Shown: positions 36,428 through 56,304 of the stretch, piece after piece | Numbering within the stretch: the first letter of the stretch is position 1 | How the letters are laid out: each line of letters starts with the position of its first letter | NCBI GenBank assembly: GCA_947501605.1 | Contig: CANMWZ010000010.1 | Span: 32,001-96,000 of the forward strand | Reading direction: 5' to 3' | Length of the DNA stretch: 64,000 bases | Origin: Planctomycetota bacterium | Lineage (GTDB): Bacteria; Planctomycetota; UBA1135; UBA2386 | Translations under genes and position numbers: made by a program | Notes under the pieces: model-generated | Told to the model about the DNA's origin: nothing | The model's input: only the letters and a program-made list of their open reading frames with translations | Database searches by the model: none

Positions 36428-36466
36428 GTCGTTGCGCCCACGCCCGCGGTGCGCGAATCTGCGCGT

Positions 36467-38238: not shown

Positions 38239-39018
38239 ATGATGCACGGACCTGCCATGTTCCGATCCCGCAAGGCCAAAACCACCGCCGAGTCCCAGGC
38301 GCAGAACGATGACCTAGTGGTGATCGTCGATCGCGCCGTGAACCCGTACCTCGTGATGTTCCACGAGCCCGCGAGCTACCGTGCCGAGCAGATGCGGGCA
38401 CTCCGCAATCGCCTCGCGACGTTGAACGCCGACGCCGAGCCCAAGACATTGGTCGTGACCTCCGCCAGCCGCAGCGAGGGAAAGACCGTGACGGCGCTCA
38501 ATCTGGCGATGGCACTGTCTGAGCTCGAACGGCAACAGGTCGTTGTCGTCGATGCGGATCTTCGGCGACCCTCGATCGAGCGCTACCTCAACCTCAATCC
38601 GGGGCCGGGTCTCAGCGACGTGCTGCAAGGGGATGTTCCGCTGGAGAAGGCCCTGCGACCAGTTGGCTTCCGACGCTTGATGGTGCTCGGCGCCGGCACC
38701 CGCGTCAACAACCCGGCTGACGTCCTGAACGGGTCGCGGATCGACGAGCTCTTTGCGCGACTGAAGGAGCGCTTTCAGTACATCGTCATCGACACACCTC
38801 CAGTGCTGCCGTCGACCGATGCCGGCGTGTTGGCGGCCCGCGCCGACGGTACGTTGTTCGTGTTGCGACTCGAGCACACGCTGAAGGGCAGTGCACGCGA
38901 GGCGCTGCGTAGCCTGCAAGAACTCGGCGCCAATGTGCTCGGCACCTTTGTCAGCGAGTTGCGTGGTCGCGATCCAGAGAGTGATCCAGATCTGCGCTAC
39001 GACAGCGTGGAGGACTGA
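38239..39018 (+). CDS. Stand-alone CpsD/CapB (BY-kinase)-like P-loop ATPase lacking the C-terminal Tyr cluster
   Basis: EQMRALR (ExxRxxR), Walker A SASRSEGKT, A' DADLRRP and B IDTPP. There is only one Tyr near the C-terminus. Confidence 0.85.
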   Translation: MMHGPAMFRSRKAKTTAESQAQNDDLVVIVDRAVNPYLVMFHEPASYRAEQMRALRNRLATLNADAEPKTLVVTSASRSEGKTVTALNLAMALSELERQQVVVVDADLRRPSIERYLNLNPGPGLSDVLQGDVPLEKALRPVGFRRLMVLGAGTRVNNPADVLNGSRIDELFARLKERFQYIVIDTPPVLPSTDAGVLAARADGTLFVLRLEHTLKGSAREALRSLQELGANVLGTFVSELRGRDPESDPDLRYDSVED

Positions 39019-39024
39019 CCAGAA

Positions 39025-39819
39025 GTGGGCGGGTTCCGGGAGTCTCTGAAGCAGGCTGTGCGGCAAATCGCGTTTCGCACCGACCTGAACTCGCTGAAGA
39101 AGCAGGGTATCGAGCAGGTCAGCGTGCTCGGAATGGACCGCATCGTCGGACTCATCGAAGAGGCCGTGCACCGCAGCCTGAAGAGTCGGTTGGTCGGACT
39201 CGAACGCGAGGCCGTCGCGGATGCGACCAAGGCCGAGTTCTTGCGGTTGCTCCGCACGAACCAAGACTTGCAGCGGGAGAAGTCGGAGGTCGAGCGGCTC
39301 AAGGAGCGCGCCGAAGAGGAGATCGACCAGTTGCGTCGCCAGCTCGGTGCCGACAAGCAAGCATTGGAGCAGCGACTACAGAGCGACTCGCTGTCGTCAC
39401 AGGCTCGCTACGAGGGCGAGAACACTCGGCTGGTCGAACGGGTTCGCGAGCTGCTGTCGAGTGCAGGTCCGGGTGCAGGCGCCGCGCTGCAAGAGCAAGT
39501 GCTCGACCTGGTGTTCCAGACGGTCGACAAGGAACGTCGGTCCGCCGAGCACGCCCGCTCTGCGCTCCGCGATCGCGAGGTCGACAACCTGCAGCGCCGA
39601 ATCGAGAAGCTGACCAGCAGCCTCGAGACTACCGAGCATCGCCTGCGTCAGGTCGCGGCGATGAAGAACATCGACGACGGCATCTCATCGATTTACCGAG
39701 AAGTGCAGGGCCTCAACGACGGCTCCGAGCAGTTCGGGAAGAAGAAGGACCTGATGTCGGCGATCTTCGCGGCCAACTTGCGCCTGCAGAAGAAGACCGG
39801 CTCGACGAACGGAAACTGA
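39025..39819 (+). CDS. Coiled-coil protein of unknown function
   Basis: Heptad-rich E/R/Q/L helices (LQREKSEVERLKERAEEEIDQLRRQL; VDNLQRRIEKLTSSLETTEHRLRQV). It starts 6 nt after the previous gene. Confidence 0.8.
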   Translation: MGGFRESLKQAVRQIAFRTDLNSLKKQGIEQVSVLGMDRIVGLIEEAVHRSLKSRLVGLEREAVADATKAEFLRLLRTNQDLQREKSEVERLKERAEEEIDQLRRQLGADKQALEQRLQSDSLSSQARYEGENTRLVERVRELLSSAGPGAGAALQEQVLDLVFQTVDKERRSAEHARSALRDREVDNLQRRIEKLTSSLETTEHRLRQVAAMKNIDDGISSIYREVQGLNDGSEQFGKKKDLMSAIFAANLRLQKKTGSTNGN

Positions 39820-39835
39820 CGCATAACCAATCTCT

Positions 39836-40921
39836 ATGAGCCAAAACGACAAGCAAGGTACGGGTGCGCCCGACACTCCCAGCAAGAACCACGGCGTCCT
39901 CTACATCGGTATGGACCTCGGGACTTCGCGCACATCGGTCAGCGCGAGCAACGGCGTTCGTGAGACGGTCTACTCGGTCGTCGGCTACCCGAAGGACGTC
40001 GTGAGCAAGAAGCTGCTCAAGAAGGACGTCCTGTTCGGCAAGGAAGCGATCGAACGTCGACTGTCGCTGAAGGTCTACAAGCCGCTCGAGAAGGGCGTGC
40101 TGAAGTACAGCGGCGCTGGCGGCATGACGGATCAGGAGAAGGACAACCTGAAGGCCGCTCAGGACCTGATCGGAGAAGCGATCCGCCTAGCCCGCCCGCG
40201 CAAGGACGAGTTGGTCTACTGCGTCATTGGTGCCCCGGCCGAGGCCTCGATGAAAAACAAGGAGGCGATCATCGAAGCCGCGCGCGCCCATGTCGACTCG
40301 GTGATGCTCTGCAGTGAACCCTTCTCCGTCGCCTACGGCCTCGACTGGCTGGAAGACGTGTTGGTGATCGACATCGGGGCCGGCACGACCGACCTGTGCC
40401 GCATGCATGGCACGATGCCAGAGGACGCCGATCAGGTGATGTACGAGATTGCTGGTGACTCGGTCGATGCCGAGCTGTCGCGACTCATCCGCGAGACGTG
40501 CCCGGGAGCCCAGTTCAGTGACGTCATGGTCAAGGACATCAAAGAGCGTTACTCGTTCTTGGGCGAGACCGGGGAGCGCGTGGTCGTCGAATTGCCAGTC
40601 AACGGCAAGCCGACGCCATTTGACCTGACGGATCAGATCCGCAAGGCATGTTCGGTACTGATCGATCCGATCGTCGAAGGCATCAGCAAGCTCGTTGCGA
40701 CTTTCGATCCCGAGTTCCAGAGCCGGTTGAAGAACCGCGTCCTGCTAGCAGGCGGTGGTTCGATGATCAAGGGCTTGGACACCGCTATCGAGAAGGCGAT
40801 GCGCGAGCGCTTGGGCGGCGGCAAGGTCATCCGCATCGAGGAACCGATCTACGGTGGCTCCAATGGCGCGCTCAAGATCGCGCACGACATGCCTGAGGAG
40901 TTCTGGGAGAAGCTGAAGTAG
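39836..40921 (+). CDS. mamK: MamK-like bacterial actin
   Basis: Actin motifs IGMDLGTS, SEPF, DIGAGTTD and LAGGGS, plus MamK-type signatures SVVGYPKDV..KLL, YGLD, DQV, KERYSF, NGKP and the C-terminal GALKIA..P..FW. Confidence 0.88.
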   Translation: MSQNDKQGTGAPDTPSKNHGVLYIGMDLGTSRTSVSASNGVRETVYSVVGYPKDVVSKKLLKKDVLFGKEAIERRLSLKVYKPLEKGVLKYSGAGGMTDQEKDNLKAAQDLIGEAIRLARPRKDELVYCVIGAPAEASMKNKEAIIEAARAHVDSVMLCSEPFSVAYGLDWLEDVLVIDIGAGTTDLCRMHGTMPEDADQVMYEIAGDSVDAELSRLIRETCPGAQFSDVMVKDIKERYSFLGETGERVVVELPVNGKPTPFDLTDQIRKACSVLIDPIVEGISKLVATFDPEFQSRLKNRVLLAGGGSMIKGLDTAIEKAMRERLGGGKVIRIEEPIYGGSNGALKIAHDMPEEFWEKLK

Positions 40922-40949
40922 CTCGCTTCGTCCTAGCCTGCTACAGAAT

Positions 40950-40985
40950 GAAGGCGCGCGTGCCGGAGTCGCTCCGGGCGCCTTC
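40950..40985. terminator. Hairpin between the convergent mamK-like and HAD genes
   Basis: GAAGGCGC...CCGGAG-TCG-CTCCGG-GCGCCTTC, a bulged stem with a weak U-tract. Confidence 0.4.
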
Positions 40986-40987
40986 TG

Positions 40988-41710
40988 TCATTCGAGCGCG
41001 AACTCGCGGCGCAGGATCGCCTGCAGCTCGAAGAAGTCGCGGATCTCCCACTGAGCCGTCGTGCGACCGTCTTCGGTCGCGTGCTTGCCGCTGCGGCGGA
41101 TCCGCACCGTGTGCCAGCCCTCTTGGTTGCAGGGGTCGATGTCGTGCGTCGGGTTGTCGCCGACGTAGAGACACCGGCTCGGGTCGAGGCGCATGCGCTG
41201 GAGGATGCGGCGGTAGAGCTTGGGGTTCGCCTTGCTGAAGCCGATTTGATCGGTGAAGAAGACCGCCGACGGGGTCATGAACTCGACGAGTTGCAGGCGC
41301 ACGAGCTTTTCTGCCTGCTTGACGGTGATCCCGGCCGAGATGATGCCGCGGATCAACTGTGTGCCAGCCAGCCACTTGAGCACTTCGTAGACATCGTCGT
41401 GGACCTGCAGTTCGCGCCACTTGGTGTCGTGGTAGGCGACGACGCCGGCCGCAACGAGCACCGCCTTGTTCAGGCCCTGGCTGGCTTCTGCGGGAAGACG
41501 ATCGACGACCTTGTCGAAATGGTTGCCGTAGTTGCTGGTGAACTCGGCGAGGACCTCTTCCAATTCGCGGAGCGCCGTCGTTCGGTCGGTGCGCAGTCCG
41601 GCGCGGATCATCGAATCGACGGCCGCTCGGCGAGCCTTGTCGGCGAACACGGTTGTCGAGAACAACGTGTCGTCGATATCGAAGAAGATCGCGTCGAGGG
41701 GCTTGGTCAC
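40988..41710 (-). CDS. HAD-superfamily hydrolase (subfamily IA)
   Basis: Motif I FFDIDDTL, motif III K.NP and motif IV YVGDN..HDI. Confidence 0.92.
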   Translation of the reverse strand: MTKPLDAIFFDIDDTLFSTTVFADKARRAAVDSMIRAGLRTDRTTALRELEEVLAEFTSNYGNHFDKVVDRLPAEASQGLNKAVLVAAGVVAYHDTKWRELQVHDDVYEVLKWLAGTQLIRGIISAGITVKQAEKLVRLQLVEFMTPSAVFFTDQIGFSKANPKLYRRILQRMRLDPSRCLYVGDNPTHDIDPCNQEGWHTVRIRRSGKHATEDGRTTAQWEIRDFFELQAILRREFALE

Positions 41711-41793
41711 GGGCGCTCGCTAGGCCGGCGGCGACTGGAGGCGAACTCGCACCGAGGGCGGCGCTGCGGTCGTCCCGCAGCGCCAGGTCGAGA

Positions 41794-44355
41794 TCACTTG
41801 CCCTCGATATCGCGGATGTCCGTGATCCACGCGCGGACCATGACCATCAGACTGCGGTTCTCGTCGGCGACGCCTTCCTGCTTGAAGAAGAAGGACAGCA
41901 GCGGCAGCTGCGAGAGCAGCGGGATCTCCGCGCGGCGTTCGCGAGTGAGCACCTGACGCAGGCCACCGAGCAGGACCGTGCCGCCGTCCGGTACTCGCAC
42001 CGTGGTCGCAAAGCTGGTGACGCGCAAGTTCGGCAACTGCAGCGTCACTGGCAGCGTCGAGCCGGCGAGCGACGTGGTGAACGTCGGGATCGGGCGGCTC
42101 AGTTCGGCGATGGTCGGGTTGAGGTTAAGGATGATGTACTTACGGTCCTGCTGGATCACCGGTCGCACGTCCAGAACGATGCCGTCCTGGATCACGTCGA
42201 CCTTCGGGTCCGCGATGAACGAGGCCTGCGCGACCTCGACGTCGAAGTCACGGACATAGGCCGTCTGGTTGATCACCGCGACGTGGCCACGCTCCTTGTC
42301 GAGGACTGACAAGTATTGGCTATTGACGATCTCGACATCCTCCTGCTTCTCGACCGCGCGCAGGATCATCTGCAACTCCGTATCGCCCAGATAGGCCCAG
42401 CTTGCAGTGAATCCGCCATTGGGCGTCAGCGCTTGGCCAAGGCCTGAGGTGAACAGGTTCTCGGTCCGGCCGCGAACGTCGCCGTCGTTGCCGTCGTTGA
42501 AGAACGCACCTGAGGTCGGGTTGGCTGCCGGGTCGCCGGTGCCGCCGTTGTCGGTGCCACGCGACGCGTTGTCGTCGAGGCCATTGGTGACGTCATCAAG
42601 GGTCGCATTGGTCCCCTTGCTGCCGGCTCCGCCGAGGCCCCGGAAATCGACGCCGATCTCCTGCAGGAAGTTGCGCGTGATCGTCAGGAACTTGCTGTCA
42701 ATCGTGACCACCGGCGTCGCCGAGCGGCGCATATCGGCGAGCACGCCCGCAACGAGCTTCTGGATCGTCGGGCTAGCCTTGACGATCAAGTAGCCGGTGT
42801 CTTCGGGCGTGATTCCCACACCCTCGCTGCCCCAGTAGGCGGGATCGGTAGCGTCTTGAACGTTGGTGACGAGGTCGGCGATCTCGATGTAGGAGACCTT
42901 GTCGTCCCCTTCACCACCAGCGCGCGGCGAGTCATCCGTATCGCCGCTACCCGGGATGTCACGGATGCGAGGCGCGAGGAACTCGGTGCGCTTGAAGACG
43001 AGGTCCTTGACGTCGTAGACCTCGCTCTGAATCTGGCCAGACGCGTCGGACTTGTTGCCGATGACAACAACTCCATTCCGGACCGTCCAAGCAAGGTTCG
43101 TCGACTTCTGAACCATCAGGTTCAAGAAGTTCTCGAGCGTGACCGAGTTCACCAGCTCGATCTCCATCTTCAGGCTCTCGCCGTTGATCACCTCGCGGCC
43201 GGCCGGAGTAATGATGATCGAGACGTTGGTGACCAACTGGAGGTTCTTGACGACCTCGGTGAACTCGCCCGTCTCGGCCGTGTAGGTCAGCTTGCCGACT
43301 GGCGCGATGCGGACTTGCTCCCAGAGAGCGGCGTCCTGCGGATCGATGCTCTGCTGTGAGCCGACGGTCCCGGCGCGGCGCTGAGCCCGCTCCCAGGTGT
43401 CGTTATCCATCGACAGCACCTTGGTGTAGGGGATCTTGAGCTCCTCGCGGCTCTCGAGCAAGGAGCGGATTTCCTTCGCCTTCTGCGAATAGTAATCCTC
43501 GTTCATCTGGTCGCGCGCGGCCTTGGTGGTGACGTGCACCATCTCTTGGGCGACGGCGCTGGTCGGATCCGCCTCGAGGGCCTTGAGTGCATACTCCTGC
43601 GCGTTGCGGAACTGGCGGCTCTCGAAGGCCACCTGAGCCTGCTGCAGGAAGAGATCGAGCCGAGCGCGGCGGCGCGCTTCCGTCTGGCGGCGCTCCTCAG
43701 CGAGGCGCTGGGCCAATTGGTCGTTGTATTGGCTCTGCGTGGCCCGCTTCTGCTCGGTCAGCTTTTGCTCCGCGTCACTGAGCAGGCCATCGACTTGCTG
43801 CGGCAGAGCTTGCCAGTCCACCTGGTCGCGAGTGCGAACGATGACCTGCGCGTGACTCAGTTCGTCGACGGCACCAGCGAAGTTCTGCTCCGCCAGCATT
43901 TCGCGAGCACGCTGCAGCTTCTCGGTCACGAGCGCGCGCGAGCGGTCTTCGGCGATGCGCTGCTGTTCTAGTTGCTCGGTGTGGAAATCGATGGCGCCCC
44001 CGATCGGCACGCCGCGTTCGGCTTGCACCGCCGCGATCATGTTGCGGACGGCCTCGTTCTCAGGCTGGAGGTCCTTCGCCTTCAGCAACTCATGCAGCGC
44101 TGCATCGAGTTTGCCATCGAGGCGGAGACGTTCGCTGACTTCCAGGTACTTGGCGACGAGAGCGGCGCGGCGCTCTTGATCGAGCGTGCGCGCACCTCCT
44201 TGCGGGTCCTGCGCAGCGGCGTTGGCTTCGCCCTGGTTCGGATTCGTCGGGTCCATGCCCGGTTCGGTGGTGGTATCGCTGGATGTCGAGCACGAAACAC
44301 CAGCAAGGGCGGCGGTCAGAGATGCGGCGAGAAGGCGCGGATGTTCGAGGGCCAT
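41794..44355 (-). CDS. Lipoprotein secretin (type II/III secretion secretin family), paralog B
   Basis: Lipobox AGVS-C, helical TPR-like N-terminus and N-domains (VYDVKDL). The secretin domain has IDSKFL...GVDF, GIVLDVRPV, LQLP..., TTVRVPDGGTVLLGG and IPLLSQLPLLSFFF. Confidence 0.88.
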   Translation of the reverse strand: MALEHPRLLAASLTAALAGVSCSTSSDTTTEPGMDPTNPNQGEANAAAQDPQGGARTLDQERRAALVAKYLEVSERLRLDGKLDAALHELLKAKDLQPENEAVRNMIAAVQAERGVPIGGAIDFHTEQLEQQRIAEDRSRALVTEKLQRAREMLAEQNFAGAVDELSHAQVIVRTRDQVDWQALPQQVDGLLSDAEQKLTEQKRATQSQYNDQLAQRLAEERRQTEARRRARLDLFLQQAQVAFESRQFRNAQEYALKALEADPTSAVAQEMVHVTTKAARDQMNEDYYSQKAKEIRSLLESREELKIPYTKVLSMDNDTWERAQRRAGTVGSQQSIDPQDAALWEQVRIAPVGKLTYTAETGEFTEVVKNLQLVTNVSIIITPAGREVINGESLKMEIELVNSVTLENFLNLMVQKSTNLAWTVRNGVVVIGNKSDASGQIQSEVYDVKDLVFKRTEFLAPRIRDIPGSGDTDDSPRAGGEGDDKVSYIEIADLVTNVQDATDPAYWGSEGVGITPEDTGYLIVKASPTIQKLVAGVLADMRRSATPVVTIDSKFLTITRNFLQEIGVDFRGLGGAGSKGTNATLDDVTNGLDDNASRGTDNGGTGDPAANPTSGAFFNDGNDGDVRGRTENLFTSGLGQALTPNGGFTASWAYLGDTELQMILRAVEKQEDVEIVNSQYLSVLDKERGHVAVINQTAYVRDFDVEVAQASFIADPKVDVIQDGIVLDVRPVIQQDRKYIILNLNPTIAELSRPIPTFTTSLAGSTLPVTLQLPNLRVTSFATTVRVPDGGTVLLGGLRQVLTRERRAEIPLLSQLPLLSFFFKQEGVADENRSLMVMVRAWITDIRDIEGK

Positions 44356-44735
44356 CGGTTCACGCTCTGGAACTTGTGGGGTGCGAGCACCCACAAGGGT
44401 TTGGGACGATTCTCCGAACCGACGATTCGCGAGCGAGCGTGCGCGAGGGGTTGCTACGCGGCGGTCGTGATGCGGCGGGGGAGGGGCTTAGGGACAACAA
44501 CGTCGCGACTGCTGCAGCAGAACGCCACGTCGAAGTCGGCGAAAGCTAGCCACGCCTGCGGGCTCGTGCCAGCGGATTCTGCGTCCATCCTGCTGGGATC
44601 TTCTTCGATTTGCGCGGGGCCGAGCACTGCGGGAGGCGATCGACGCCCGCCGGTGCGGCGGGCGCGGCGCCCACCGTTCTGTGCTTAGGCCTTGGTGCTC
44701 TCGCGAAGATCGAGATCGAGCACTCGTGAAACAGC

Positions 44736-44770
44736 GCGACCCTGCTGCGGGGTTGCCGCAGCAGGGTCGC
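44736..44770 (-). terminator. Perfect 15-bp inverted repeat after exbD
   Basis: GCGACCCTGCTGCGG/CCGCAGCAGGGTCGC with a 5-nt loop, 40 nt after the exbD stop, followed on the - strand by GCTGTTTC. Confidence 0.6.
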
Positions 44771-44811
44771 AGGTGGACTCGCCCAGCGAGTCCTTGGGCA
44801 CGCTCGCCGGA

Positions 44812-45378
44812 CTACTTCTTTCCTGGAGCCTGGCCGAGGCCGCCGCCGAAGTTGATCTCGCCGAATCCAGCGGCCTTCACCAAGTCCGCGGTCTTCGCCG
44901 CATCATCATAGTACGTGCCCGGGTGTGGTTCGATGACCACCGGCATCGGCTTCTTCTGGCCGGGCTTCTCTTTGTCATCCTGCCAAGTGTCGCGGTTGTT
45001 GTAGATCCGCTTCAATTGGTTCAGCAGGTCGTCGCTGTTCGTCACCAACGTTGGGCCCACCATCCATTTGATGGTGTGACCCTGAAGGGCGAAGCGGTAG
45101 GGACGCTGGGTCTGGCTGTTGACCAAACCAGGGCCGCCGCCATTGGGAAACCGCTGGGTGCCCCTGGAGTCCTCGTAGACGCCGAGCGATAGCTGTTCCT
45201 GTGGCTCCACCTTGGTTGCTTGGCTGCCCTTGTCCTTGGGCAGGTAGGCTGGCAGCTTGGCCTCGAGCACTTTGAATTCGATGCAGATGAAGAAGATGAT
45301 CATCAGGAAGACGCAGTCGATCATGGGCGTCATGTCCGGCTTGACTTCTTCCTGGGCTGCTGCGAGTAGATCGCTCAT
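44812..45378 (-). CDS. exbD: ExbD/TolR family protein
   Basis: TM segment DMTPMIDCVFLMIIFF with the essential Asp. The periplasmic domain ends in VVI.P...YDD......VKAAG...INF. Confidence 0.88.
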   Translation of the reverse strand: MSDLLAAAQEEVKPDMTPMIDCVFLMIIFFICIEFKVLEAKLPAYLPKDKGSQATKVEPQEQLSLGVYEDSRGTQRFPNGGGPGLVNSQTQRPYRFALQGHTIKWMVGPTLVTNSDDLLNQLKRIYNNRDTWQDDKEKPGQKKPMPVVIEPHPGTYYDDAAKTADLVKAAGFGEINFGGGLGQAPGKK

Positions 45379-45399
45379 CGTCGGTTCCTTGCTGGTTGT

Positions 45400-45921
45400 C
45401 TAGTTCTTGCCCTTGAGCAGCGCCTCTTCCTTGTCCTTTTCGGACATGGCGAGCTCGACCTTCCAGAAGGCAGCTTCGGGCTGGCTGCACTGCTTCATCA
45501 CTTCGCCGACGAAGTGCCACTCGGTCCACTTGTCAGCGCGCAGGAGGATCGGATCGTCGACCAGTTCTACGTCGCGTCCGCCGAGATTCTCAGTCTTCGT
45601 CTTCACGTTGCCGGTCTGCTTGATCAGCTTCAGCATTCGTAGGATGCCGGAGTAATCGCTGCCGTGGACCGCAGGGTCGTACTGCATCTTCCCCTTGTAG
45701 TAGACCGCGCCCGTTTGCAGCAGGTTGATGACGGGTCGGTTCTCGGGCGGCGAGTCATCGGCTTGCTGATACTGTGCCTTGGGGAGAATCAGGTCTTCGA
45801 GGTTGGTCTGACTCAGGTCGATGATCAGCACGAAGAAAATCATCAGCAGGAACACGCAGTCGATCATCGGAGTCATGTCCATCTCCTGCGTCTGCTGCGC
45901 TTCTTTCTTGAGGTCGGTCAT
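45400..45921 (-). CDS. exbD: ExbD/TolR family protein
   Basis: DMTPMIDCVFLLMIFF, LPKA and ILLRADK.....V.EVM. Confidence 0.9.
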   Translation of the reverse strand: MTDLKKEAQQTQEMDMTPMIDCVFLLMIFFVLIIDLSQTNLEDLILPKAQYQQADDSPPENRPVINLLQTGAVYYKGKMQYDPAVHGSDYSGILRMLKLIKQTGNVKTKTENLGGRDVELVDDPILLRADKWTEWHFVGEVMKQCSQPEAAFWKVELAMSEKDKEEALLKGKN

Positions 45922-45983
45922 TGCTCAGCTCCTTGCCCGCGAGACGGGACTAGGTCGAACGTGCACGGGGACAAGTGGTTCGA

Positions 45984-46712
45984 TCACTGCCCCTTGCGGA
46001 AGCGCTCGAACATGTCCTCGGCGATGGCATTGACCTCGGTGCAGATGCGGACGACGCGGTTTCGGAGGACGAAGAAGCACACGCCGACTGGCATCGCGAC
46101 CGTAAGGCCGAAGATCGTCGTGATGAGTGCCATCTTGATGCCCTTGGCCAAGATCGCAGGGCTCACGGATCCACCGGCAGAGGCGATCGTTCCGAAGGTC
46201 ACGAACATGCCCGTCACGGTGCCGAACAATCCCATCATCGGTGCCGTCGCGGACATGAGCGACAGCCAGCCGACCTTTTGGAACAGCTTGGTGGATTCTT
46301 CCGCCTCCATCTCGCGGACGGTGGCCTGAATCGTCTCGAACGGGTGGCCAAGCTTGCTGAGGCCCGCGCCGACACACCGCGTCAGGTAGAACTTTTCGTT
46401 CTCACAGAGCTCGGTCGCTTCCTGAAAGTTCTCTTCGTCGAACAGCGCGCCCAGCTCGTCAATCAGGTCGGGCGGCGCAAGCTTCTCGCGCTTCAGGGAG
46501 ACGAAGTTCTCGATGATTAGCGCCAGGGAGATGACCGACATGGCGACGATGATGTAGCCGATGAGGCCAGCGTTTTCGTACGCGAACATGTCCGCGAGCG
46601 CGCCGGTTTGCTCGGCGGCGGCGGGCTTCGCATCCTGCGCGGAAGCGAGGCTGGTCACGAACAACGGCGTGGCAAGGGCGAGGAATCGAGCGATGCTAGA
46701 TGGGAGGTTCAT
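45984..46712 (-). CDS. exbB: ExbB/TolQ/MotA proton-channel protein with a cleavable signal peptide
   Basis: APMMGLFGTVTGM and GIKMALITTIFGL.VAMP. Start MNLPSS at 46712, signal peptide LASA-Q. Confidence 0.92.
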   Translation of the reverse strand: MNLPSSIARFLALATPLFVTSLASAQDAKPAAAEQTGALADMFAYENAGLIGYIIVAMSVISLALIIENFVSLKREKLAPPDLIDELGALFDEENFQEATELCENEKFYLTRCVGAGLSKLGHPFETIQATVREMEAEESTKLFQKVGWLSLMSATAPMMGLFGTVTGMFVTFGTIASAGGSVSPAILAKGIKMALITTIFGLTVAMPVGVCFFVLRNRVVRICTEVNAIAEDMFERFRKGQ

Positions 46713-46866
46713 GGAGCAGCGACTCCGTGTGCAGGAGTAGGGCAGGTAGCAGGGAGAGGGGGTTAGATCGAGCCGCAGAGTTTGCGCGGTCGCGCGACCG
46801 CGGAAAAGACCCTGAGACAGATGGAAACGAAAAAGGGGTGGGCACGCGGCATGCGGGCCGTCGATG

Positions 46867-47982
46867 TCACTTGGCGAGCTCGGTCTTCGCCGGACCAACC
46901 CAACGGCTGGTGGAGTAGCTACGAATCACGAGGTTGAAGTAGGCGGTTGCGCGATTCTTCCAGTCCTGGCTGGCGCGTTCGCCCAGCGCTGTAACCACGC
47001 GACCGAGGTAGTAGTTGGCTTTCGCAGCCGTGTCGCCGGCGCCGGTGTCGAGCACGCAGGCTTCGGCGAGCGCGATTTCGGCCGTGCGCAGCCCAGCGGC
47101 GTCGTTGGCGCCCACTGCAACGAGGAACGTGGCTTCACCGAGGCCGGCCTTGCCGGCGGCGGCGAGCGATGCGTCCGTGTTCTGGGCTAGGGTCCGGAAG
47201 TAATCCGAGGCGCGGACATAGTCCTTCTCGAAGACAAGCGATTCGCCTTCGCCGACCTTCGAGTTGACCTTGATCGCGACCATTTCCGCGCTTTGGCCAC
47301 CAGCGGCGGCGAGAGCGGTGTCCGCAGTGCCGCCGGCGCTCTGGAAGGAACTGCGGGCGTCGGCTGCTCGGCCTTGTTCGAGCAGACTCAGGGCCAATTC
47401 GTACTTCGCGCGCGCATTCCAGATCGCTCCCCAGCCATCGCTACCAGCGCGATTGTCGAGGTCCTTCAGTGTCGCTTCGGCGTCCGCATGCACTTGGCCG
47501 AGTCGCAGTGCACGGCCGAGTAGATACATCCCTTCGGGGACGCGCCAGTGGTCGGGGAACTCGCTGAGCCACGCCCGCATGGCACCCGACGCGTTCGCCG
47601 CGGCGGCGGGATCGCCGGCGGCTGCCATGACCGCGGCCCGGCCTTGCAGCAGGCGGGCTTCGGCCTTGACCACGGGACGGTCGCTGGCAGTTGCCGCCTC
47701 GCCGAATTGCTGTCTGGCCAATTCGTACTCGTTGCGAGCCATGGCGGCGAGGCCGCTCGTGAAGCTCTCAGGGACTCCGCCCCACTGGATGTCGACAATC
47801 TGGTGCGGGGGGATCTCGACTTCCTCTTTGCTGCGCGTCACCTTGACCGAGGTCAGCGTGAAGACTGTCACCGTCACGCCGCGAAGGCTCGAGCCGTCGA
47901 CCTTGACAATGGTGTCTGACGATTCCTGCGCCGGCAACCAGGCTGTGCACAGCGACAGACAGAGAACGAACAAGGAGCGCAT
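46867..47982 (-). CDS. Secreted TPR protein
   Basis: Signal peptide (WLPA-Q), a small N-terminal beta domain (DTIVKVDG) and TPR repeats (FPDHWRVPEGMYLLG; YSTSRWVGPAK). Alternative GTG start at 48003. Confidence 0.8.
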   Translation of the reverse strand: MRSLFVLCLSLCTAWLPAQESSDTIVKVDGSSLRGVTVTVFTLTSVKVTRSKEEVEIPPHQIVDIQWGGVPESFTSGLAAMARNEYELARQQFGEAATASDRPVVKAEARLLQGRAAVMAAAGDPAAAANASGAMRAWLSEFPDHWRVPEGMYLLGRALRLGQVHADAEATLKDLDNRAGSDGWGAIWNARAKYELALSLLEQGRAADARSSFQSAGGTADTALAAAGGQSAEMVAIKVNSKVGEGESLVFEKDYVRASDYFRTLAQNTDASLAAAGKAGLGEATFLVAVGANDAAGLRTAEIALAEACVLDTGAGDTAAKANYYLGRVVTALGERASQDWKNRATAYFNLVIRSYSTSRWVGPAKTELAK

Positions 47983-47999
47983 GGCGGGTGTGCGGGCGT

Positions 48000-50882
48000 T
48001 CACGGGCGGTTCAGGTCGAAGTAGGTGAAGAGGTTCATGCCGTCCTGGCCGAGCGCCTTGAGGCCGGCGAACTTGTCGAGTGCTCCCGTCGTGCGGTAGA
48101 TCGAAGCCGCGTAGCCCTTGTAGGTGCTGTCCTGCTCGCCAGCCTGTTTGGCGTACCAGTAGCATTCCCATTGGAAGCGATACCAGTCGATGCTGTACTT
48201 CTGGACTGCGGGGCGCTGAGCCCAGGTCCGGTACTCGGAGTAGTACTTGTCGTAGGCTTCCTTGTAGCGGCCGAGGCCAGGCTCCTTCACCGGCTTGCCA
48301 CGGTTATTGAGGTAGAACCAGCCGCCAAGGGCCTTGCAGACCAGGCGCTTCAGCTCGTACTGGTTGGGGTTGGCCTTCTCGGCTGCGAGCAACATGTCGA
48401 GTGCCTGCTGAAACTGGCGTTGCTCGAGCAGCGCTTCACCGATTTTCGGCCGAATCGTGAGGTCGATGACCTCCTTGGTCTTCGCCTCTGCTTCAGTTCC
48501 GTACAGTTGCAGCGCCTTCTGCGCGACCTCGTCGACTTTCTTCCAGTCGCCGAGTTTCTCGAAGGCGTTCATCGTGTTGACCAGGATGCCGAGCTGCGGC
48601 TTGCCCGACGAACGGATGTAGTCAACGCCCAGGTTGCACAGGCGCGTGCGCATCTGCGTGATGTCGTTGCGCAGCTTCTCAATGCCCGCCTTGTCCTTGT
48701 CGGCACTGACGGCAGCGTCGAGTTCTTTGTCCAGATTGGCCGTGTGCGTCAGGTAGGCACCGAAGATGACGCTTGCTAGCTTGCTTGCGCGCTGCTCATC
48801 GAGGTCCTTGATCTGCAAGTACGAGGCTTCGGCCTTGTCGAGTTCGCCCAGGTCTGCGTGCATCCGGCCAAGAGCGTCGAGCGCCTGTGCGATCGTCGCT
48901 TCTTTCGACTTGCCGTGGTTGGCGACAAAGGCCTGCATCAGCGCGATTGCCGCCGGATACTTTGCAGGGTCGCGTTGCAGCTTCAGGGTCGCATCGCCAT
49001 AGGCCTGCGCGTAGGCGATTGCTGCCTCGGTGTAATCCGTGCGCCGGATGGCACTCTCGCGGACTTGTGCCTTGTCGGCTCTCTTGGGGTCGAGAACGGC
49101 TTCCTTGGAAGCGAGCCAAGAGCGGTAGTCGGCGATGGACTGCGTGGCCTCCGCGATCTTGCCGCCAAAGAACTGCATCCGGATCAGGTTGGCGCGCGCG
49201 AGCTCGTACTGCAGGAACTCCTTCGGTACCTGAGCAAAGGCGTCGACCGCTTCCGTCCACTTGCTCTCGGCCATGCGGTCATTGCCGTTCTTCCAGTGGA
49301 CCTTGCCGGCGCCGGCCGTCGAGTAGGCCAACACGGTCGGCTCGGCCATGGCAAACAGCGGCTGCAGAGCAGGGTCGTTCTTGCTGATCGACTTGAGCTG
49401 CGTGACGGTGCGATCCAAGCGGTCTGCCATGTCGCTGGCGAGCGGCGATTCGGTGCCGTCCTCTCGCTTGCCGAAGCGCTTCAGTCCTTGCTCGAAGGCA
49501 ATCAGCGACTCGAGGAATCGATCCGTCGCAGCGAAGATCTTCCCGAGGAGGTCATAGGCTTCGAGGCCGATTGCTCTTTGCTCTTCTGGTGACATCGTCG
49601 CGAGCGCGCGGCGGAGACCCTTGATGCCCTCCTCGTAGTTCTTGTTCTGATATTCGCCCTTGGCGATTTCGAACAGGAGCGAGCCCGAAACCAAGTTGCG
49701 CTGGCGATCGAGAATCTGACGCAGCACCGCCTTGGCCTTGATGCCGACGTAATCGCTCGGATGCTTGTCGTTGATCTTCTGCGCCATGGTCAGCGCCTGT
49801 TGCACCTTGGCAGCATCTCCCGACTCGGCAAGGAACCGGCATTCGGCCAGGAAGGTAAGGTGACCAAAGCGCGGATCGCAGATCTCGAGCGGATCGAGCC
49901 CCTTCTCACCGTTCTTGGCGAGGTTGTCGCGGAACGAAAGGAACATCTCCGTCGCCGCCGCCGTGTCGCCCTGCTCGAACAGGAGTTCGCCGAGATGCGC
50001 GTAGACCTCCTGCATCATGTCAAAGAGGAAGGCCAGCGTGTCGCCGCTGAGCTCGTTGTCCTCGGCATTGAGTGTGACGCCGATCTGTTGGATGGTTGCG
50101 CTATAGCTGGCGATTGCATCGGCAGTGTTGCCCGCAACCTCACGGCACTGAGCGATCTCGAAGAGCCCGCGCAGGCCGAGTGCGGTTTCCTCCCCGTACT
50201 CAAGCACCATCTCTTCGAGTTCATTGATTGCTCGTCCCGTCTGAACTTCCCGGTCCTGCTTGATGGCGCGACCATGTTCGCGCAGCAGCACGCCTTTGCG
50301 CATCCAGGCAAGACCGTACTCGAGCTTCGTCTGCGGATCCTTGGCTGCACCCTCTTGCAGCGCCTGCATGACCTTCACGCACGATTCGCCGCCGAGTGCG
50401 AACACGTCCTTCGCTTCCTGTTCCAGTTCGGCCACGCGAGTTGGCGATTCCGTGCGCGCAACATCGAGTTCTTCGTTGAGGAACTGTCCAAATTCCTGAG
50501 CTGCTTCTGCGAGCGTCGCGCGAGCGTCGCGCTGGACCGTTGCGTCGCTGCTGCGCTCGAGCAGTTCTTTGCTCTGCAGCAGAGCCTTCTTGTAGTCGCT
50601 GCGCTGCTCGATGCGGTTCTGCTTGATGCGCGCGCCGAACAGCGAGACCTCCACTCGCAACTGCAGGACGCGGTCCTGGTCGCTAGCCGTCTTGAATTCA
50701 CTCTCGAGTCGCGCGAGCTCGGTCTCTGCGACCGACACGAGTCCGAGATCGCGCGCGAGGCCGCGCACAAAGGTCATCTCCCGGTCGAGCTTGGCCGGTC
50801 CCTGAGCGACAGCAATCGTCGTCTGGAACGACATCGCCAAGAGGCCAAGGGCGACAGGAGACAGGAACGCTCGGGCGCGCAT
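48000..50882 (-). CDS. Large secreted TPR / alpha-solenoid protein (~960 aa)
   Basis: Start MRARAF at 50882, signal peptide (IAVA-Q) and many TPR-like repeats. Confidence 0.8.
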   Translation of the reverse strand: MRARAFLSPVALGLLAMSFQTTIAVAQGPAKLDREMTFVRGLARDLGLVSVAETELARLESEFKTASDQDRVLQLRVEVSLFGARIKQNRIEQRSDYKKALLQSKELLERSSDATVQRDARATLAEAAQEFGQFLNEELDVARTESPTRVAELEQEAKDVFALGGESCVKVMQALQEGAAKDPQTKLEYGLAWMRKGVLLREHGRAIKQDREVQTGRAINELEEMVLEYGEETALGLRGLFEIAQCREVAGNTADAIASYSATIQQIGVTLNAEDNELSGDTLAFLFDMMQEVYAHLGELLFEQGDTAAATEMFLSFRDNLAKNGEKGLDPLEICDPRFGHLTFLAECRFLAESGDAAKVQQALTMAQKINDKHPSDYVGIKAKAVLRQILDRQRNLVSGSLLFEIAKGEYQNKNYEEGIKGLRRALATMSPEEQRAIGLEAYDLLGKIFAATDRFLESLIAFEQGLKRFGKREDGTESPLASDMADRLDRTVTQLKSISKNDPALQPLFAMAEPTVLAYSTAGAGKVHWKNGNDRMAESKWTEAVDAFAQVPKEFLQYELARANLIRMQFFGGKIAEATQSIADYRSWLASKEAVLDPKRADKAQVRESAIRRTDYTEAAIAYAQAYGDATLKLQRDPAKYPAAIALMQAFVANHGKSKEATIAQALDALGRMHADLGELDKAEASYLQIKDLDEQRASKLASVIFGAYLTHTANLDKELDAAVSADKDKAGIEKLRNDITQMRTRLCNLGVDYIRSSGKPQLGILVNTMNAFEKLGDWKKVDEVAQKALQLYGTEAEAKTKEVIDLTIRPKIGEALLEQRQFQQALDMLLAAEKANPNQYELKRLVCKALGGWFYLNNRGKPVKEPGLGRYKEAYDKYYSEYRTWAQRPAVQKYSIDWYRFQWECYWYAKQAGEQDSTYKGYAASIYRTTGALDKFAGLKALGQDGMNLFTYFDLNRP

Positions 50883-51114
50883 AGGGCGCCGGATGGTGCT
50901 GCCGATCACGAGGCTGACTCCAGAATGCAGAAGAGGCACGATTCGGATTGCGCCCGAGGGTGCATGCGGGCGCCACCGACTCGGGCAAAGACCAGCGCGC
51001 GGAGGGGTCTCACCACGCGTTGGACAAGGAACGCTGAACATAGCGATCGGTTCAGTGGAGCCAATCGCCAAGGGCGCGAGCGCTGAGACAGCAGCACGCG
51101 CCCCGCTAGGGGTG

Positions 51115-53790
51115 TTACTTGCTCGCGGCGACGCCGGCGTCGGGCAGGGTCATTGAGTCGGGCTGCAGCTCTTCCATGATCACGATCTTGGCATTGATCA
51201 GGATGAGGATCTTGCGGTTCTGCATCGACTGGCCTTTGCGACTGAACAAGAACGAAATGCCGGGCAGGTCCTTGAGGATCGGCACACCGGACACCAAGTT
51301 CTGCCGTTCGACCAGGCGCATGCCGCCGAGCATCATGGTCGCACCATCGGGCAGCGTGACCGTGGTCCGAACTCGTTGCAGGGAGACTTCCGGCAGCTGG
51401 ATCGAAATCGGCTGACCGACGCCCAGTGTGGTCGTGAAGTTCGGGATCGGCAGCTGCAGCGTCATCACCGTCGGGCGCAGCTCCATGGTGATGAACTTCA
51501 GGTCGCTGTCGACCACGGGCCGAACGTCCAGCGTCACGCCGTCATAGACGGTTCCGATCACTGGGTTCGCGACGCCGGCGGCCTGCGCGATCTCGACCTC
51601 GAAGTCCTTGATGTAGCTGATCTCATTGAGCACGTGCATGCTGGCGCGCGTGTTGTTGTAGATCAGCAGGCGCGGTGCCTCGATCTGCTCGCTGCGCTCC
51701 TGCTTGCTGACCGCGCGCAACACGGCCTCGACCTCGGTGTCGTCGAGGAAGGCATACTGCAGCGAGAGACCACCGAGGTTGTTCATGCCGCCGTCGCCGC
51801 CCAGGGTGCGGTCAAACAGATTCTCGGCGCGGGCCATGTAGTCGCCGTCGTTGCCGTCATCGAAGAAGATGCCGGGTTCCGTGCCTGTGCCGAGGAGTCC
51901 CGGCGTTGCGGCGTTCTGCTGCTGCGATGGCCCGAAGTCGTCAAAGCTCGCATTGGGCCGAGTCTCGAGACCACGGCCGGGGAGCCCCTGCGACGACTGA
52001 TCGCCGAGGCCGCGAAGGTCGACACCGACGTCTTCGAGGAAGTTGTCTTCGACCTTGAGGAAGCGCGATTCGACATCGATCTGGATGCCGACATTTCGGC
52101 GCAGATCGCGCAGCAGCTTCAGCACCGAATCATGGGTGTCCTTGTCGGCCCGCACCATGAGCATGCCGGCCTGGAAGTTCATCGTGAACGGGCTGCCGTC
52201 CCAGCGACCTGTGGCGACGGCTTCTTTCAGGATGTCCTGGAGGCGACTGTCGTTGACAACCGCTGGCGCCGGCTCTTCGTCGACTTCGGGGAACAGTGGC
52301 GTGTCATCGTCCGGGGCCTTGAGCTTGAGGTCCGGGCCTGGCTTGCTGGTGAAGCCGGTAACGAGGTCACTGACGTTGTAGCGATCGTAGTAAAGCGTGC
52401 CGATCGCGTTCTCTGGGGTGACCAGTTGCACCAATCCGTGGTTGATACGGTAGGCGACGCCCGTCTGGGCCTGGATGACCTTCAGTGCCTCACCTACCGA
52501 GCGGCGCGACAGACGGAAGTCGGTCAGAGTGGTCGCGGTCGCATCCATGCCGGCGACATCCGGACCGACCACAAACGTCACCCCTGTCAGGTTGCCGTAG
52601 TAGGTCGCCCAGTCCTGGACCGAGGCGCTCGGGAAGTTGTGCTCCAACGAGGTCTCCGCCAGCTTCCGTTCGATGGCGCGGTTCTCCGGGCTGTCGAGCT
52701 CCGCCGGGGTTGCGAAGGCTTGCTGCTTGCGCTGCGAGACTTCCGCCCATCGGATCGGATCGAACACGACCGTCTCGGTCTGCGGCATGTTCGACTGCTG
52801 GTTCTCCAACACCGTCGCGTTCCACTCCTGGCGCCACTGCTCGCGGTTGAGCTCCATGGCGCTGTTGTGGCGCGCGCGGTCCGCAACGTCGCGCAGTTGC
52901 GTCGCTGCGGTGTTGGTCGGGTCGATCTGCAGCGCTTGATCGATGCGCTCGACGGAGCCGTCATACTGCCCCGCGAGGAACTGATTGTTTGCATCTTCGA
53001 GCAGGCGCTCGACCCGCGCCTCGCGCGACTCCTGCTGCTGCTTGGCGATGCGATCCAGTTCGGCCTTGGAGGCGGCCTCCTGGTTCTGCAGGCTCTGCTT
53101 GTCGGATTCCAGCTTCCGCTTCGAAGCGGCTTCGAACTCAGCCTCGGCGCGCCGGAGCAGGGGGTCGTTGGGTTGGAAGTGCGGCGACAGCCGAAGGGTC
53201 GCGAGCGACCGCTGGTAGTTCTCGATTGCACGGCCGTAGGCGCCCTGCTGCATGTGGGCGTTGGCTTGCTCGAGTTCACGCTCGACCAGGGTCCGGTCGC
53301 GTTCCGCGGCGATGCGGTTGCGCAGGATCTCGTCGGCGAAGCGGCCACCGACCGTAGCTACTCGATCGCCCAGCACCTCGTTGCAGCGCCGGAGGATCTC
53401 GCGGGCTTCCGGGTTCTGGTTGTCGAGCTCCAAGGCAAAGGCTGCCTCGTTGCGCGCATCGGCAAACAGACGAGCCTCCATGGAGCGTCGCGCATTCTGC
53501 AGCGCGCCTTGCAGGAGGGCTTGCGTGCTCGGCCGGCCTTGCGGGTCTTGCGCGTCGCCTTGCGGGTTGTTGCGGTCGACGGCAGCGAGGCCAATCGCAG
53601 TCGCTGCCGTCTGCGTGCTCGCTGATGCCGTCTCTGCCTCGCTCATCACTTGGCCCTGGTTCGTCAGGGAACCTGGGTTTCCAGATCCTGAGTAACCAGA
53701 TCCGGAACTCATGGTGCCAGAACATGCAGCGAGTGCGAGCAGCGAGGACGCACAGAGGCCGCGAAGGCGCAGGGTCTCGACCTTGATCAT
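51115..53790 (-). CDS. Lipoprotein secretin, paralog A
   Basis: Start MIKVET at 53790, lipobox LAA-C and a TPR-like N-terminus. The secretin domain has VESRFL...GVDL, APRL...N, GVTLDVRPV, IQLP, TTVTLPDGATMMLGG and GVPILKDLP. Confidence 0.88.
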   Translation of the reverse strand: MIKVETLRLRGLCASSLLALAACSGTMSSGSGYSGSGNPGSLTNQGQVMSEAETASASTQTAATAIGLAAVDRNNPQGDAQDPQGRPSTQALLQGALQNARRSMEARLFADARNEAAFALELDNQNPEAREILRRCNEVLGDRVATVGGRFADEILRNRIAAERDRTLVERELEQANAHMQQGAYGRAIENYQRSLATLRLSPHFQPNDPLLRRAEAEFEAASKRKLESDKQSLQNQEAASKAELDRIAKQQQESREARVERLLEDANNQFLAGQYDGSVERIDQALQIDPTNTAATQLRDVADRARHNSAMELNREQWRQEWNATVLENQQSNMPQTETVVFDPIRWAEVSQRKQQAFATPAELDSPENRAIERKLAETSLEHNFPSASVQDWATYYGNLTGVTFVVGPDVAGMDATATTLTDFRLSRRSVGEALKVIQAQTGVAYRINHGLVQLVTPENAIGTLYYDRYNVSDLVTGFTSKPGPDLKLKAPDDDTPLFPEVDEEPAPAVVNDSRLQDILKEAVATGRWDGSPFTMNFQAGMLMVRADKDTHDSVLKLLRDLRRNVGIQIDVESRFLKVEDNFLEDVGVDLRGLGDQSSQGLPGRGLETRPNASFDDFGPSQQQNAATPGLLGTGTEPGIFFDDGNDGDYMARAENLFDRTLGGDGGMNNLGGLSLQYAFLDDTEVEAVLRAVSKQERSEQIEAPRLLIYNNTRASMHVLNEISYIKDFEVEIAQAAGVANPVIGTVYDGVTLDVRPVVDSDLKFITMELRPTVMTLQLPIPNFTTTLGVGQPISIQLPEVSLQRVRTTVTLPDGATMMLGGMRLVERQNLVSGVPILKDLPGISFLFSRKGQSMQNRKILILINAKIVIMEELQPDSMTLPDAGVAASK

Positions 53791-54999: not shown

Positions 55000-56168
55000 G
55001 GCGCCACCTTCGGGCCGCGTCGACTGGCAGGGGCCATGGCTACGGTTGCCGCATCCTCGCCGAGCAGCGGGAAGATGCCGTAGCTGTGGGCCAGGCTCGG
55101 GCGATCTCCGAGGGCGATCACGGAGTGCCAGGCGCAGTCGTCGAAGCCCTGCGACGGCAGCAGGATCGAGTCGCCCTCCTCGACGACGTAGACCGCGCCG
55201 AGCGCCGACAGGTGTTTGGCGAAGCCCAGATCGCGGTTGAGAAGCTGCCAGATCTGGCGATCGCCGTCGTGGTCGAGTCGATCGAGGCCGGCGCGTTCGT
55301 TCGTCGCGAGGCCAAGGCGCACGACGAGCCGCGCGAGCCGGCGCTTACTGAGCGTCAACCAAGTGGTGCGCCCTTGCAGTTGCGTGTAGCAGACGCCGAG
55401 TTGGCCCGGCTCGGCGTCGTGGTGGAACACGGCGCCACCGTCCGGCGCGTTGTTGTAGAGAATGCGTTCGGACAGGTGGTAGGGGCGCCCCAGTAACGTG
55501 CGCAACAGGCCCTGCAACTCGCCGCAGCCATCGATGGCCGCGCACTCTGGAAAGGCGCTGCGGGCGAGCGCATCGACGGCCAGCGTGGTGCGTTCGGTAG
55601 CCCTCATCCAGCCGTCTGCCGCGCCGTCGCCGCTGCTGTGGCGGATTCGCAGCGAACGATCGCTTTCGTCGTTGGCGATCCAGCTCGCTCGGGCCCACAG
55701 GTCCGCGGCGCCAGCGAAGGTCCCCGTTGCGGCGTCGAAGAACACGGTCTCGACGTCGCGAGGGTCCAGGTGCTCGACAGTGCTCCCCGAGTAGGCGAAC
55801 TCGTGCTGGTCGCGGAGTCGGCGTTCGAGTTCGTCGAGGAAATCGCGACCTTTGCGCAGGCGTTCGAACATCTGCAGCGATGCTTCGATCGCGCCGGCGA
55901 CCGAGGGCAAGATCGAGGCAACGATGCCAGGCAAGAACACGGCTTCGCTTGCATCCCAGCGATAGCGCGCGGCCGCGCGGTCCAGCGGATCGCGTCGCAG
56001 CGCGAGCACGAAACCGAAGTCGACGCCGCGCCGGCGCAAGGGCCACGCCGTCCTTTCCCGGCGCCGCCAACTCGCCACGAGCGCCTCGCTGCCCGGGGGC
56101 AGGATGCGCGCGGTAGCGGCTAGGGCCACTGCACGGTTGCTGGCACGGCGGTCCGTTTTGGTGGGCAC
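54996..56168 (-). CDS. Cupin/JmjC-like putative Fe(II) oxygenase
   Basis: FHHDAE (HxD), YTQLQGRTTW and VEEGDSILLP...WHSV (distal His). The stop overlaps the UDG start. Start uncertain. Confidence 0.6.
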   Translation of the reverse strand: MPTKTDRRASNRAVALAATARILPPGSEALVASWRRRERTAWPLRRRGVDFGFVLALRRDPLDRAAARYRWDASEAVFLPGIVASILPSVAGAIEASLQMFERLRKGRDFLDELERRLRDQHEFAYSGSTVEHLDPRDVETVFFDAATGTFAGAADLWARASWIANDESDRSLRIRHSSGDGAADGWMRATERTTLAVDALARSAFPECAAIDGCGELQGLLRTLLGRPYHLSERILYNNAPDGGAVFHHDAEPGQLGVCYTQLQGRTTWLTLSKRRLARLVVRLGLATNERAGLDRLDHDGDRQIWQLLNRDLGFAKHLSALGAVYVVEEGDSILLPSQGFDDCAWHSVIALGDRPSLAHSYGIFPLLGEDAATVAMAPASRRGPKVAP

Positions 56169-56304
56169 CCGCGCACGCTACCGCGAAGCCGGGAGCGGCG
56201 TCACGCATGCAGTCGCCGCGATCGCTCACGGCGGCGACTTCCACGCGGTGGACGAAAGGCCCGTCCTGTGCAACAGTCAGTCGCTCGCCTTCCGGACCAC
56301 GCTA

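Follow-up and report, generated by a model that had tools for sequence, protein, structure and literature searches.

We analysed a stretch of 64,000 nt from a Planctomycetota bacterium (contig CANMWZ010000010.1, positions 32,001-96,000; this whole stretch is called the window), in which seven genes at window positions 41794-53790, all on the minus strand, bring together two secretins, two tetratricopeptide repeat (TPR) proteins and an ExbB/ExbD-type motor. Read along the minus strand from 53790 to 41794, the open reading frames encode secretin A (51115-53790, 891 aa; PF00263 and TPR), a large exported TPR scaffold (48000-50882, 960 aa; Pfam TPR, with a signal peptide judged by eye), a small exported TPR protein (46867-47982, 371 aa; an N-terminal beta domain of ~45 residues followed by a TPR solenoid), an ExbB/TolQ-type motor subunit with a cleavable signal peptide (45984-46712, 242 aa; PF01618), ExbD1 (45400-45921; PF02472), ExbD2 (44812-45378; PF02472) and secretin B (41794-44355, 853 aa; PF00263), a paralogue of secretin A with the same architecture. 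An earlier account made from the letters alone (the sequence-only reading) had described seven co-oriented genes in this order with two paralogous lipoprotein secretins at the ends, and the Pfam matches and the alignment and signal peptides described below bear this out. A gene for a HAD-family hydrolase (40988-41710, minus strand; PF00702, with a TIGR02253 match below the cut-off) follows secretin B and counts as a conserved eighth member of the block, since its profile matched in 39 of the 80 loci from relatives described below.

The intergenic gaps from secretin A to secretin B measure 232, 17, 154, 62, 21 and 456 bases, and because of the 456-base gap between exbD2 and secretin B a single transcript is an assumption only. 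In RNA data of three studies, each of the seven genes is covered in part by contigs, none of which spans the block; they allow no ranking of the genes, and DNA may be present among them. Contigs of X1 and X5 break off before secretin B, at 44466 and 44483, and one contig of X2 crosses the gap, which is at most a weak hint of a separate transcription start for secretin B. No sigma-70-type promoter was found for the block, and terminator matches were uninformative.

Both outer genes encode members of the secretin family, scoring 86 and 83 bits against PF00263 (cut-off 27.5). The two proteins share 28% identity over 848 columns, and both signal peptides end in a lipoprotein cysteine (LLALAAC23 in A, LAGVSC22 in B) that is at least 90% conserved among 72 aligned secretins. 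Secretin A runs from the Cys23 lipoprotein signal through a disordered linker, TPR hairpins, a helix of ~60 residues and further TPRs to the N domains and the barrel. In its AlphaFold model (predicted local distance difference test, pLDDT, 81), two small alpha/beta N domains precede the secretin barrel, and no C-terminal S domain was seen. The top Foldseek matches were all secretins, the best being PilQ (6w6m) and BfpBG (9u5s), with InvG and GspD among the neighbours. When the small TPR protein was modelled in complex with residues 85-475 of secretin A, the score was 0.00, and we drew no verdict from it.

A tree of 139 secretin domains placed A and B inside a planctomycete clade of 134 rows (support 96), with the genome's four canonical secretins outside it. 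A and B occupied separate deep clades (support 97 for that of B), and twinning of the secretin seems to have occurred more than once in evolution. The secretin and PilM trees were made with FastTree without bootstrap and the ExbB tree is a quick tree; their deep branches are uncertain. A 1815-aa secretin of genome G178 was considered as an A-B fusion and rejected, as it has only one secretin domain, and matches to the secretin tail on contigs C27, C58 and C2 of the genome were set aside for lack of a PF00263 match.

The motor genes retain the key residues of a proton motor. The motif DMTPMIDCVF is present in both ExbD proteins, and its transmembrane Asp21, which the sequence-only reading had picked out in both, was invariant in all 42 ExbD1 and all 38 ExbD2 sequences aligned. 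In ExbB, Thr165 and Thr199 were invariant in 42 of 42 sequences. The block thus holds the PF01618 and PF02472 domains, the transmembrane Asp and the Thr ring of the ExbB/TolQ-ExbD/TolR motors. ExbD2 forms a class of its own, with F35, L46, P47 and G51 invariant in the alignment of 38; its profile matched that of ExbD1 at 99.8% with 23% identity. The 960-aa TPR scaffold is single-copy in the genome, its own profile giving one match. The model of the 371-aa TPR protein (pLDDT 93) matched only generic TPR proteins, with weak matches of the YbgF/BamD type in sequence. An atlas search returned only unnamed TPR and squalene-cyclase-like clusters.

The sequence-only reading had also noted the absence of TonB, receptor, pilin and ATPase genes. 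This stands for the locus: profile searches gave no match to TonB_C, a TonB-dependent receptor or PilB/GspE anywhere in the window, no pilin N-terminus was found on the window's contig, and no PilB/GspE, PilC/GspF or pilin accompanies the secretins. We likewise found no tolA, tolB or pal domain among the scanned proteins of the cluster and its flanks. It does not stand for the genome, which carries such genes on contigs C6, C30, C22 and C8. All four matches, two to TonB_C and two to receptors, lie on C6 and C30, away from the window motor. The C6 operon comprises TonB, an ExbD, two ExbB and a receptor, so that its TonB has its own ExbB/ExbD. A third motor lies on C7 between a TPR gene and a gene for a WD40/helical-barrel protein. 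Four other secretins are encoded in a gspD-gspE-gspF locus (C6), a pilM-N-O-Q locus (C1), a locus resembling a type II secretion system (T2SS; C52) and on C33. Because the genome has these four secretins and the separate C6 and C7 motors, the secretins and motor of the window are surplus to the canonical systems.

We searched 251 genomes of the phylum with secretin A, and 245 matched at E 1e-10. A sample of 80 loci of at most 20 kb from 78 genomes and 69 families was picked from the secretin matches listed, by the secretin alone and for family spread. An ExbB and at least two ExbD genes lay co-oriented beside the secretin in 45 of the 78 genomes (39 of the 69 families). Chance linkage, estimated from 1-8 such ExbB genes per ~5 Mb, would be a few percent, with the reservation that kin are not independent; kept in 45 of 78 genomes, the linkage is not due to chance, and the main prediction of the sequence-only reading, a conserved union of secretin, TPR, ExbB and two ExbD genes, holds across the phylum. 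Twin secretins occurred in 49 genomes, 36 of which also had a linked motor, and in 33 genomes from 28 families the motor stood between the two secretins. Co-orientation and nesting persist over these 28 families although secretin identity drops to 22-35%. Among the 33 genomes outside the linkage count, G033, G037 and G023 are linked at their other secretin, and the loci of G064 and G005, which contain an ExbB, break off at the end of the locus or contig. TPR genes remain beside the secretins after departure of the motor in G002, G021, G093, G179 and G076. In one displaced TPR-TPR-ExbB-ExbD-ExbD block (L225, G008:C1:784000-800000), a second gene for a PilP-slot protein with an Fn3 domain lies 5 kb downstream.

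A paralogous TPR-TPR-ExbB-ExbD-ExbD module, whose ExbB forms a clade with support 100, was present in seven of the 78 genomes, these being without an in-cluster motor (six families), and in G091 and G174. In seven genomes with complete context a transducer gene heads the module (transducer-TPR-TPR-ExbB-ExbD-ExbD), encoding a Ser/Ala-x3-His helix (His in six of seven), an acidic linker and a squalene-cyclase-like barrel. At E <1e-100, the profile of this ExbB clade matched in 8 of 79 genomes, namely the seven that supplied its sequences and G176, where both types are present; the 46 genomes with an in-cluster motor gave no match. Four of the seven paralogous-motor genomes keep TPR genes between their secretins. 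By its distribution, the paralogous motor looks like a replacement of the in-cluster one.

Two full-length, barrel-headed TonB-like proteins are encoded in the genome under study without an adjacent motor (G000:C4:60581-62110 and C1:287273-288811). The former has Ser-x3-His, a proline-rich acidic linker and the barrel head, with the later Leu/Ser of the SHLS motif out of register. Among the matches listed, full-length transducer-like proteins occurred in at least 49 of 61 genomes, and six genomes had no match. Such barrel-headed proteins may serve the window motor in trans. Many relatives carry tandem arrays of barrel-headed TonB-shaped genes, and the C1 candidate stands beside a gene that appears flagellin-like by eye (G000:C1:289067-289897). 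In the C7 motor locus (G000:C7:91262-98831, plus strand; L010), the gene after TPR-ExbB-ExbD encodes a 1118-aa protein in which WD40-like repeats are combined with the same barrel.

Upstream of secretin A, many relatives carry a PilM-PilN fusion (30 of 80 loci), a PilO-slot gene (30 of 80) and a membrane-anchored Fn3 protein (42 of 80), an Fn3 domain being matched in 6 of 23 PilP-slot proteins. Secretin A is thus in many relatives the last gene ('PilQ') of a pilMN-O-P-Q-like operon of the Akkermansia Amuc_1101-1098 type. This operon, a pilin locus beside the cluster in nine genomes and the TonB-shaped proteins encoded elsewhere leave the stand-alone, ATPase-, pilin- and TonB-free machine of the sequence-only reading unsupported. 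In f1, the family of this genome, no secretin-linked PilMN was found in 5 of 5 genomes, one of them a single contig. The profile of the PilP-slot protein (c1) had no match in this genome, and the three upstream genes were not found in f1. The PilM proteins of the five f1 genomes are canonical and FHA-type, with a GspL-type in three, and all lie in clades apart from the secretin-linked PilM. The PilMN on contig C22 was rejected as the missing secretin-linked PilMN, since it falls in a clade of its own (support 100) and other genomes carry both types. Family f1 keeps both secretins and the motor (the window; loci L025 and L026), and on this gene content its secretins appear to have shed the alignment genes and retained the motor.

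The closest described counterparts are two loci of Akkermansia, MUL1 and MUL2, which are described as mediating mucin transport and processing (PMC13174399) and whose genes are reported to be required for mucin uptake (PMC12418764, PMC12570417, PMC13174399). The gene mul1A is described as a mucin transport gene, and internal accumulation as requiring the MUL genes for pili and periplasmic complexes (PMC12570417, PMC12418764). Amuc_1098, of the Akkermansia muciniphila MUL2 locus (Amuc_1098-1102), is reported as the most abundant outer-membrane protein and, like the window secretins, combines N-terminal TPRs with a C-terminal secretin domain in ~900 aa (PMC4960237, PMC13174399). Secretin A is the sole secretin of the genome that matches the Amuc_1098 family model (NF042912) over positions 141-796. 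Akkermansia Amuc_1101, Amuc_1100 and Amuc_1098 matched the planctomycete PilMN, PilO-slot and secretin profiles at 257, 28 and 148 bits, and in the relatives the secretin is preceded in the same order by the PilM-PilN fusion (NF045709, 250 bits) and the PilO- and PilP-slot genes. The window block differs from MUL2 in having two secretins, with lipoprotein signals, and in the loss of the three upstream genes in f1.

The likeness to MUL1 (Mul1A, Amuc_0544, and Mul1B) is that a single run holds an ExbB with a signal peptide, two ExbD that differ from each other, and exported TPR proteins of ~1000 and ~360 aa. The Akkermansia protein that best matched the ExbB profile (E 1.8e-50) is encoded by the first gene of a run, close to mreB, that reads ExbB-ExbD-ExbD-TPR (1077 aa)-TPR (355 aa); because the last gene passes the Mul1B family model, this run is MUL1 or abuts it. 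Amuc_0540 and Amuc_0546 have been described as MreB and a biopolymer transporter, respectively (PMC11480725). The Akkermansia ExbB and the window ExbB are mutual best matches (91.7 bits against 54.3 for the next; 36% identity over 217 aa). The profile of the 960-aa TPR scaffold matched the 1077-aa TPR protein beside Mul1B at 96.7% (E 4.5e-10, 483 columns), a score that TPR repeats inflate, and the 371-aa protein matched Mul1B at 50% (E 1.6e-4) by profile comparison. This TPR similarity is weak and may be generic. The TPR genes follow the motor in Akkermansia and precede it in the window, and no secretin lies beside MUL1. The block resembles MUL1 and MUL2 in its working parts but falls outside the Amuc_1098 and Mul1B families by their cut-offs.

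Other known systems share fewer parts. A module predicted in the PVC bacteria consists of a TPR protein, one tolQ-like gene, two tolR-like genes and a vWA transducer (PMC12204202). The window block has no vWA gene, secretin B follows exbD2, secretins flank the motor (the word 'secretin' is absent from the main text of PMC12204202), and its candidate transducer is helical-barrel-headed and encoded elsewhere. With the type IVa pilus pilMNOPQ and T2SS operons the block shares the secretin fold and the ancestral operon layout, but it has no ATPase, platform protein or pilin, and the genome's own pilMNOQ (C1) and gspDEF (C6) belong to other clades. The sequence-only reading had compared the block with the Myxococcus AglRQS gliding motor. 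The count of one plus two motor subunits, with TPR partners, which we take to be the AglRQS-Glt layout, agrees; nothing further does, and MUL1 with MUL2 provides the nearer model. AglRQS is named in PMC12204202 as a motor of such a type.

Taken together, these results would fit a Ton-like proton motor that works with dedicated secretins as one machine, probably for polymer uptake, a reading that we judge to be evenly balanced. The ExbB5-ExbD1-ExbD2 proton motor would sit in the inner membrane, the two periplasmic TPR scaffolds would link motor and pore, and the two lipid-anchored TPR-secretins would form the outer-membrane channel. The motor would pull, via a TonB-shaped transducer and the TPR proteins, on the secretin or on cargo inside it; the C4 and C1 proteins are candidates for this transducer, which would comprise a transmembrane helix with Ser-x3-His, an acidic proline-rich linker and a squalene-cyclase-like helical barrel. 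By likeness to MUL1 and MUL2, the likeliest task would be to bring large glycans or glycoproteins into the periplasm; gliding is unlikely as the function. A sulfatase-TPR gene lies within the block in many relatives (profile match in 21 of 80 loci) and counts in favour of this reading. The sulfatase, which has a C-terminal TPR-like tail, sits between ExbD2 and secretin B (for example L036:11854-13767) and is absent from the window cluster. In a more specific and rather doubtful form of the proposal, the secretin channel, perhaps a mixed A/B ring, would be opened or loaded by the proton-motive force through barrel-headed arms and TPRs, needing neither an ATPase nor a PilMNOP link. Such a 'TonB-dependent secretin' would be the route of polymer uptake in these planctomycetes, and f1 would have a stripped-down form of it.

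Several observations weigh against motor-driven uptake through the secretins. The support for coupling of motor and pore consists of gene order and gene content, and true splits of motor and secretin occur in several lineages, including the single-contig genomes G008, G042 and G001. TPR-ExbB-ExbD-ExbD modules with a vWA transducer and no secretin were found at loci L233, L239, L240 and L242 (cf. PMC12204202), and the motor module therefore needs no neighbouring secretin. The transducer candidates are unlinked and multi-copy with a partial SHLS pattern, and the six genomes without one include G010 and G035, both of which have the cluster. The block contains no glycoside hydrolase gene. The window secretins score 105 and 56 bits with NF042912, far below its curated cut-off of 750 (the Akkermansia protein scores 1095), Amuc_1098 lies outside the planctomycete secretin clade on a long branch, and Amuc_1099 does not align to the Fn3 PilP-slot (c1) protein of the relatives. 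The Mul1B model NF052542 (cut-off 75), which does score the Akkermansia protein, gave no match for the small TPR protein of the window or in the 5 genomes searched, and among 42 relatives it matched in two (best E 2e-7). MUL1 and MUL2 lie on different Akkermansia contigs, and aquatic Akkermansiaceae are reported to keep MUL2 without MUL1 synteny (PMC13174399).

The secretins could instead serve an ATP-driven type IV filament system as its ordinary pore, with pilins and alignment proteins from C22 and ATPases from C8, the motor block being a co-regulated neighbour that acts elsewhere or aids pore assembly; we consider this a possible but rather unlikely explanation. The C22 locus (34003-51125, minus strand) encodes an FHA-membrane protein, a PilMN fusion, a PilO-slot protein, an 897-aa TPR protein, four pilin-like proteins and a 1715-aa PilX-like protein, yet no secretin or ATPase. 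With a threshold of E 1e-79, its FHA-type PilMN was matched in 51 of 79 genomes. In at least nine of the 51, from seven families, it lies 8-19 kb from the cluster, and thus within ~20 kb (G206, G032, G080, G176, G072, G010, G024, G151 and G033; a lower bound, given fragmented assemblies), and it is contiguous and co-oriented in G080. It was not found in eight single-secretin genomes (G001, G003, G006, G031, G040, G042, G088 and G107), which fits a filament pore. Seven genomes with twin or triple secretins (G075, G098, G011, G005, G019, G035 and G038) also had no match to it at E 1e-45, and this speaks against such a pore. The ATPases would come from a pilB-pilT-pilB locus on C8 (19.9-24.3 kb), whose PilB type is present in 35 of 36 genomes and whose PilB pair is the best match, in order, of the two Akkermansia PilB genes; none of the 35 genomes, however, had a PilB match less than 20 kb from the cluster. 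The C33 secretin is an alternative pore for C22, and the nesting of the motor between secretins in 33 genomes also disfavours a mere neighbour. Since the C22 type of pilin locus lies near the cluster in relatives and the C8 PilB is near-universal, the filament reading stays alive; the pilins and PilB/PilT may also contribute in trans as parts of the proposed motor-secretin machine.

Motor and secretins could also form one machine for proton-driven export of surface glycoconjugates or glycosylated proteins, which seems improbable. Secretins are usually export pores, and the loci contain neighbours suggestive of surface glycans: the HAD hydrolase, the sulfatase-TPR gene, GT2 (7 loci) and GT4 (4) glycosyltransferases, an asparagine-synthase-like amidotransferase (4), and homologues of a multi-pass TPR membrane protein (window 56104-59193) in 8 of the loci searched. 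However, we saw no Wzx, Wzy or Wza gene in the block, the glycosyltransferases are patchy, and Akkermansia, the sole relative with phenotypes, points to uptake. A motility or shape motor of the Agl-Glt kind, in which secretins would stand in for the Glt outer-membrane barrels, is quite improbable. Besides the motor composition (a TolQ-like subunit, two TolR-like subunits that differ, and TPR partners), it is favoured by a MamK-family actin gene 66 bases from the HAD gene and by the amoeboid Saltatorellota, which have a MamK-like actin (10.1101/817700). Against it, GltG matched over its FHA part only in 6 of 6 genomes (a search with no positive-control genome), the actin adjoins the cluster only in f1 (2 of 80 loci), and homologues of the genes are found in Akkermansia, which is described as lacking motility (PMC12418764). 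Least credible, and very improbable, is an inherited neighbourhood with no functional link. Housekeeping genes of the flanks do accompany the block, with uracil-DNA glycosylase present in 14 of 80 loci, and kin are not independent, but co-orientation and nesting across 28 families and the absence of the paralogous ExbB from genomes with an in-cluster motor speak for a link.

To our knowledge, all secretins that have been studied well take their power from a cytoplasmic ATPase, and the partners of Ton-type motors are plugged beta-barrels or Pal. A conserved union of a secretin with a Ton-type motor, if true, would be a new way of powering an outer-membrane pore. Literature searches, whose coverage excluded supplements and most subscription journals, found no paper on secretins with ExbB/ExbD in Planctomycetota. 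The cluster joins in one place two gene sets that Akkermansia uses for mucin import, predicts that the unlinked MUL1 and MUL2 are halves of one machine, and names planctomycete genes as candidates for macromolecule transport across the outer membrane. Should motor and pores have nothing to do with each other, the finding would reduce to a pair of pilus-type secretins specific to the lineage, next to a motor module that had already been predicted in 2025.

Other genes of the window were noted in passing. The actin-like protein (39836-40921, plus strand) passes the MamK family cut-off (403 against 400 bits), and its gene is convergent with the HAD gene and stands after a CpsD/ParA-like NTPase gene and a coiled-coil gene. 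It is possibly a candidate for the 'saltatorellin' of Saltatorellota, whose amoeboid movement is described as unexplained (10.1101/817700). The multi-pass membrane protein at 56104-59193 (plus strand) has C-terminal TPRs and no family match beyond TPR. It is presumably similar to glycosyltransferases of the GT-C/TMTC type. Further away, at 27642-32953 (plus strand), an FHA-GAF-sigma54 activator is followed by a 1101-aa Ser/Thr kinase.

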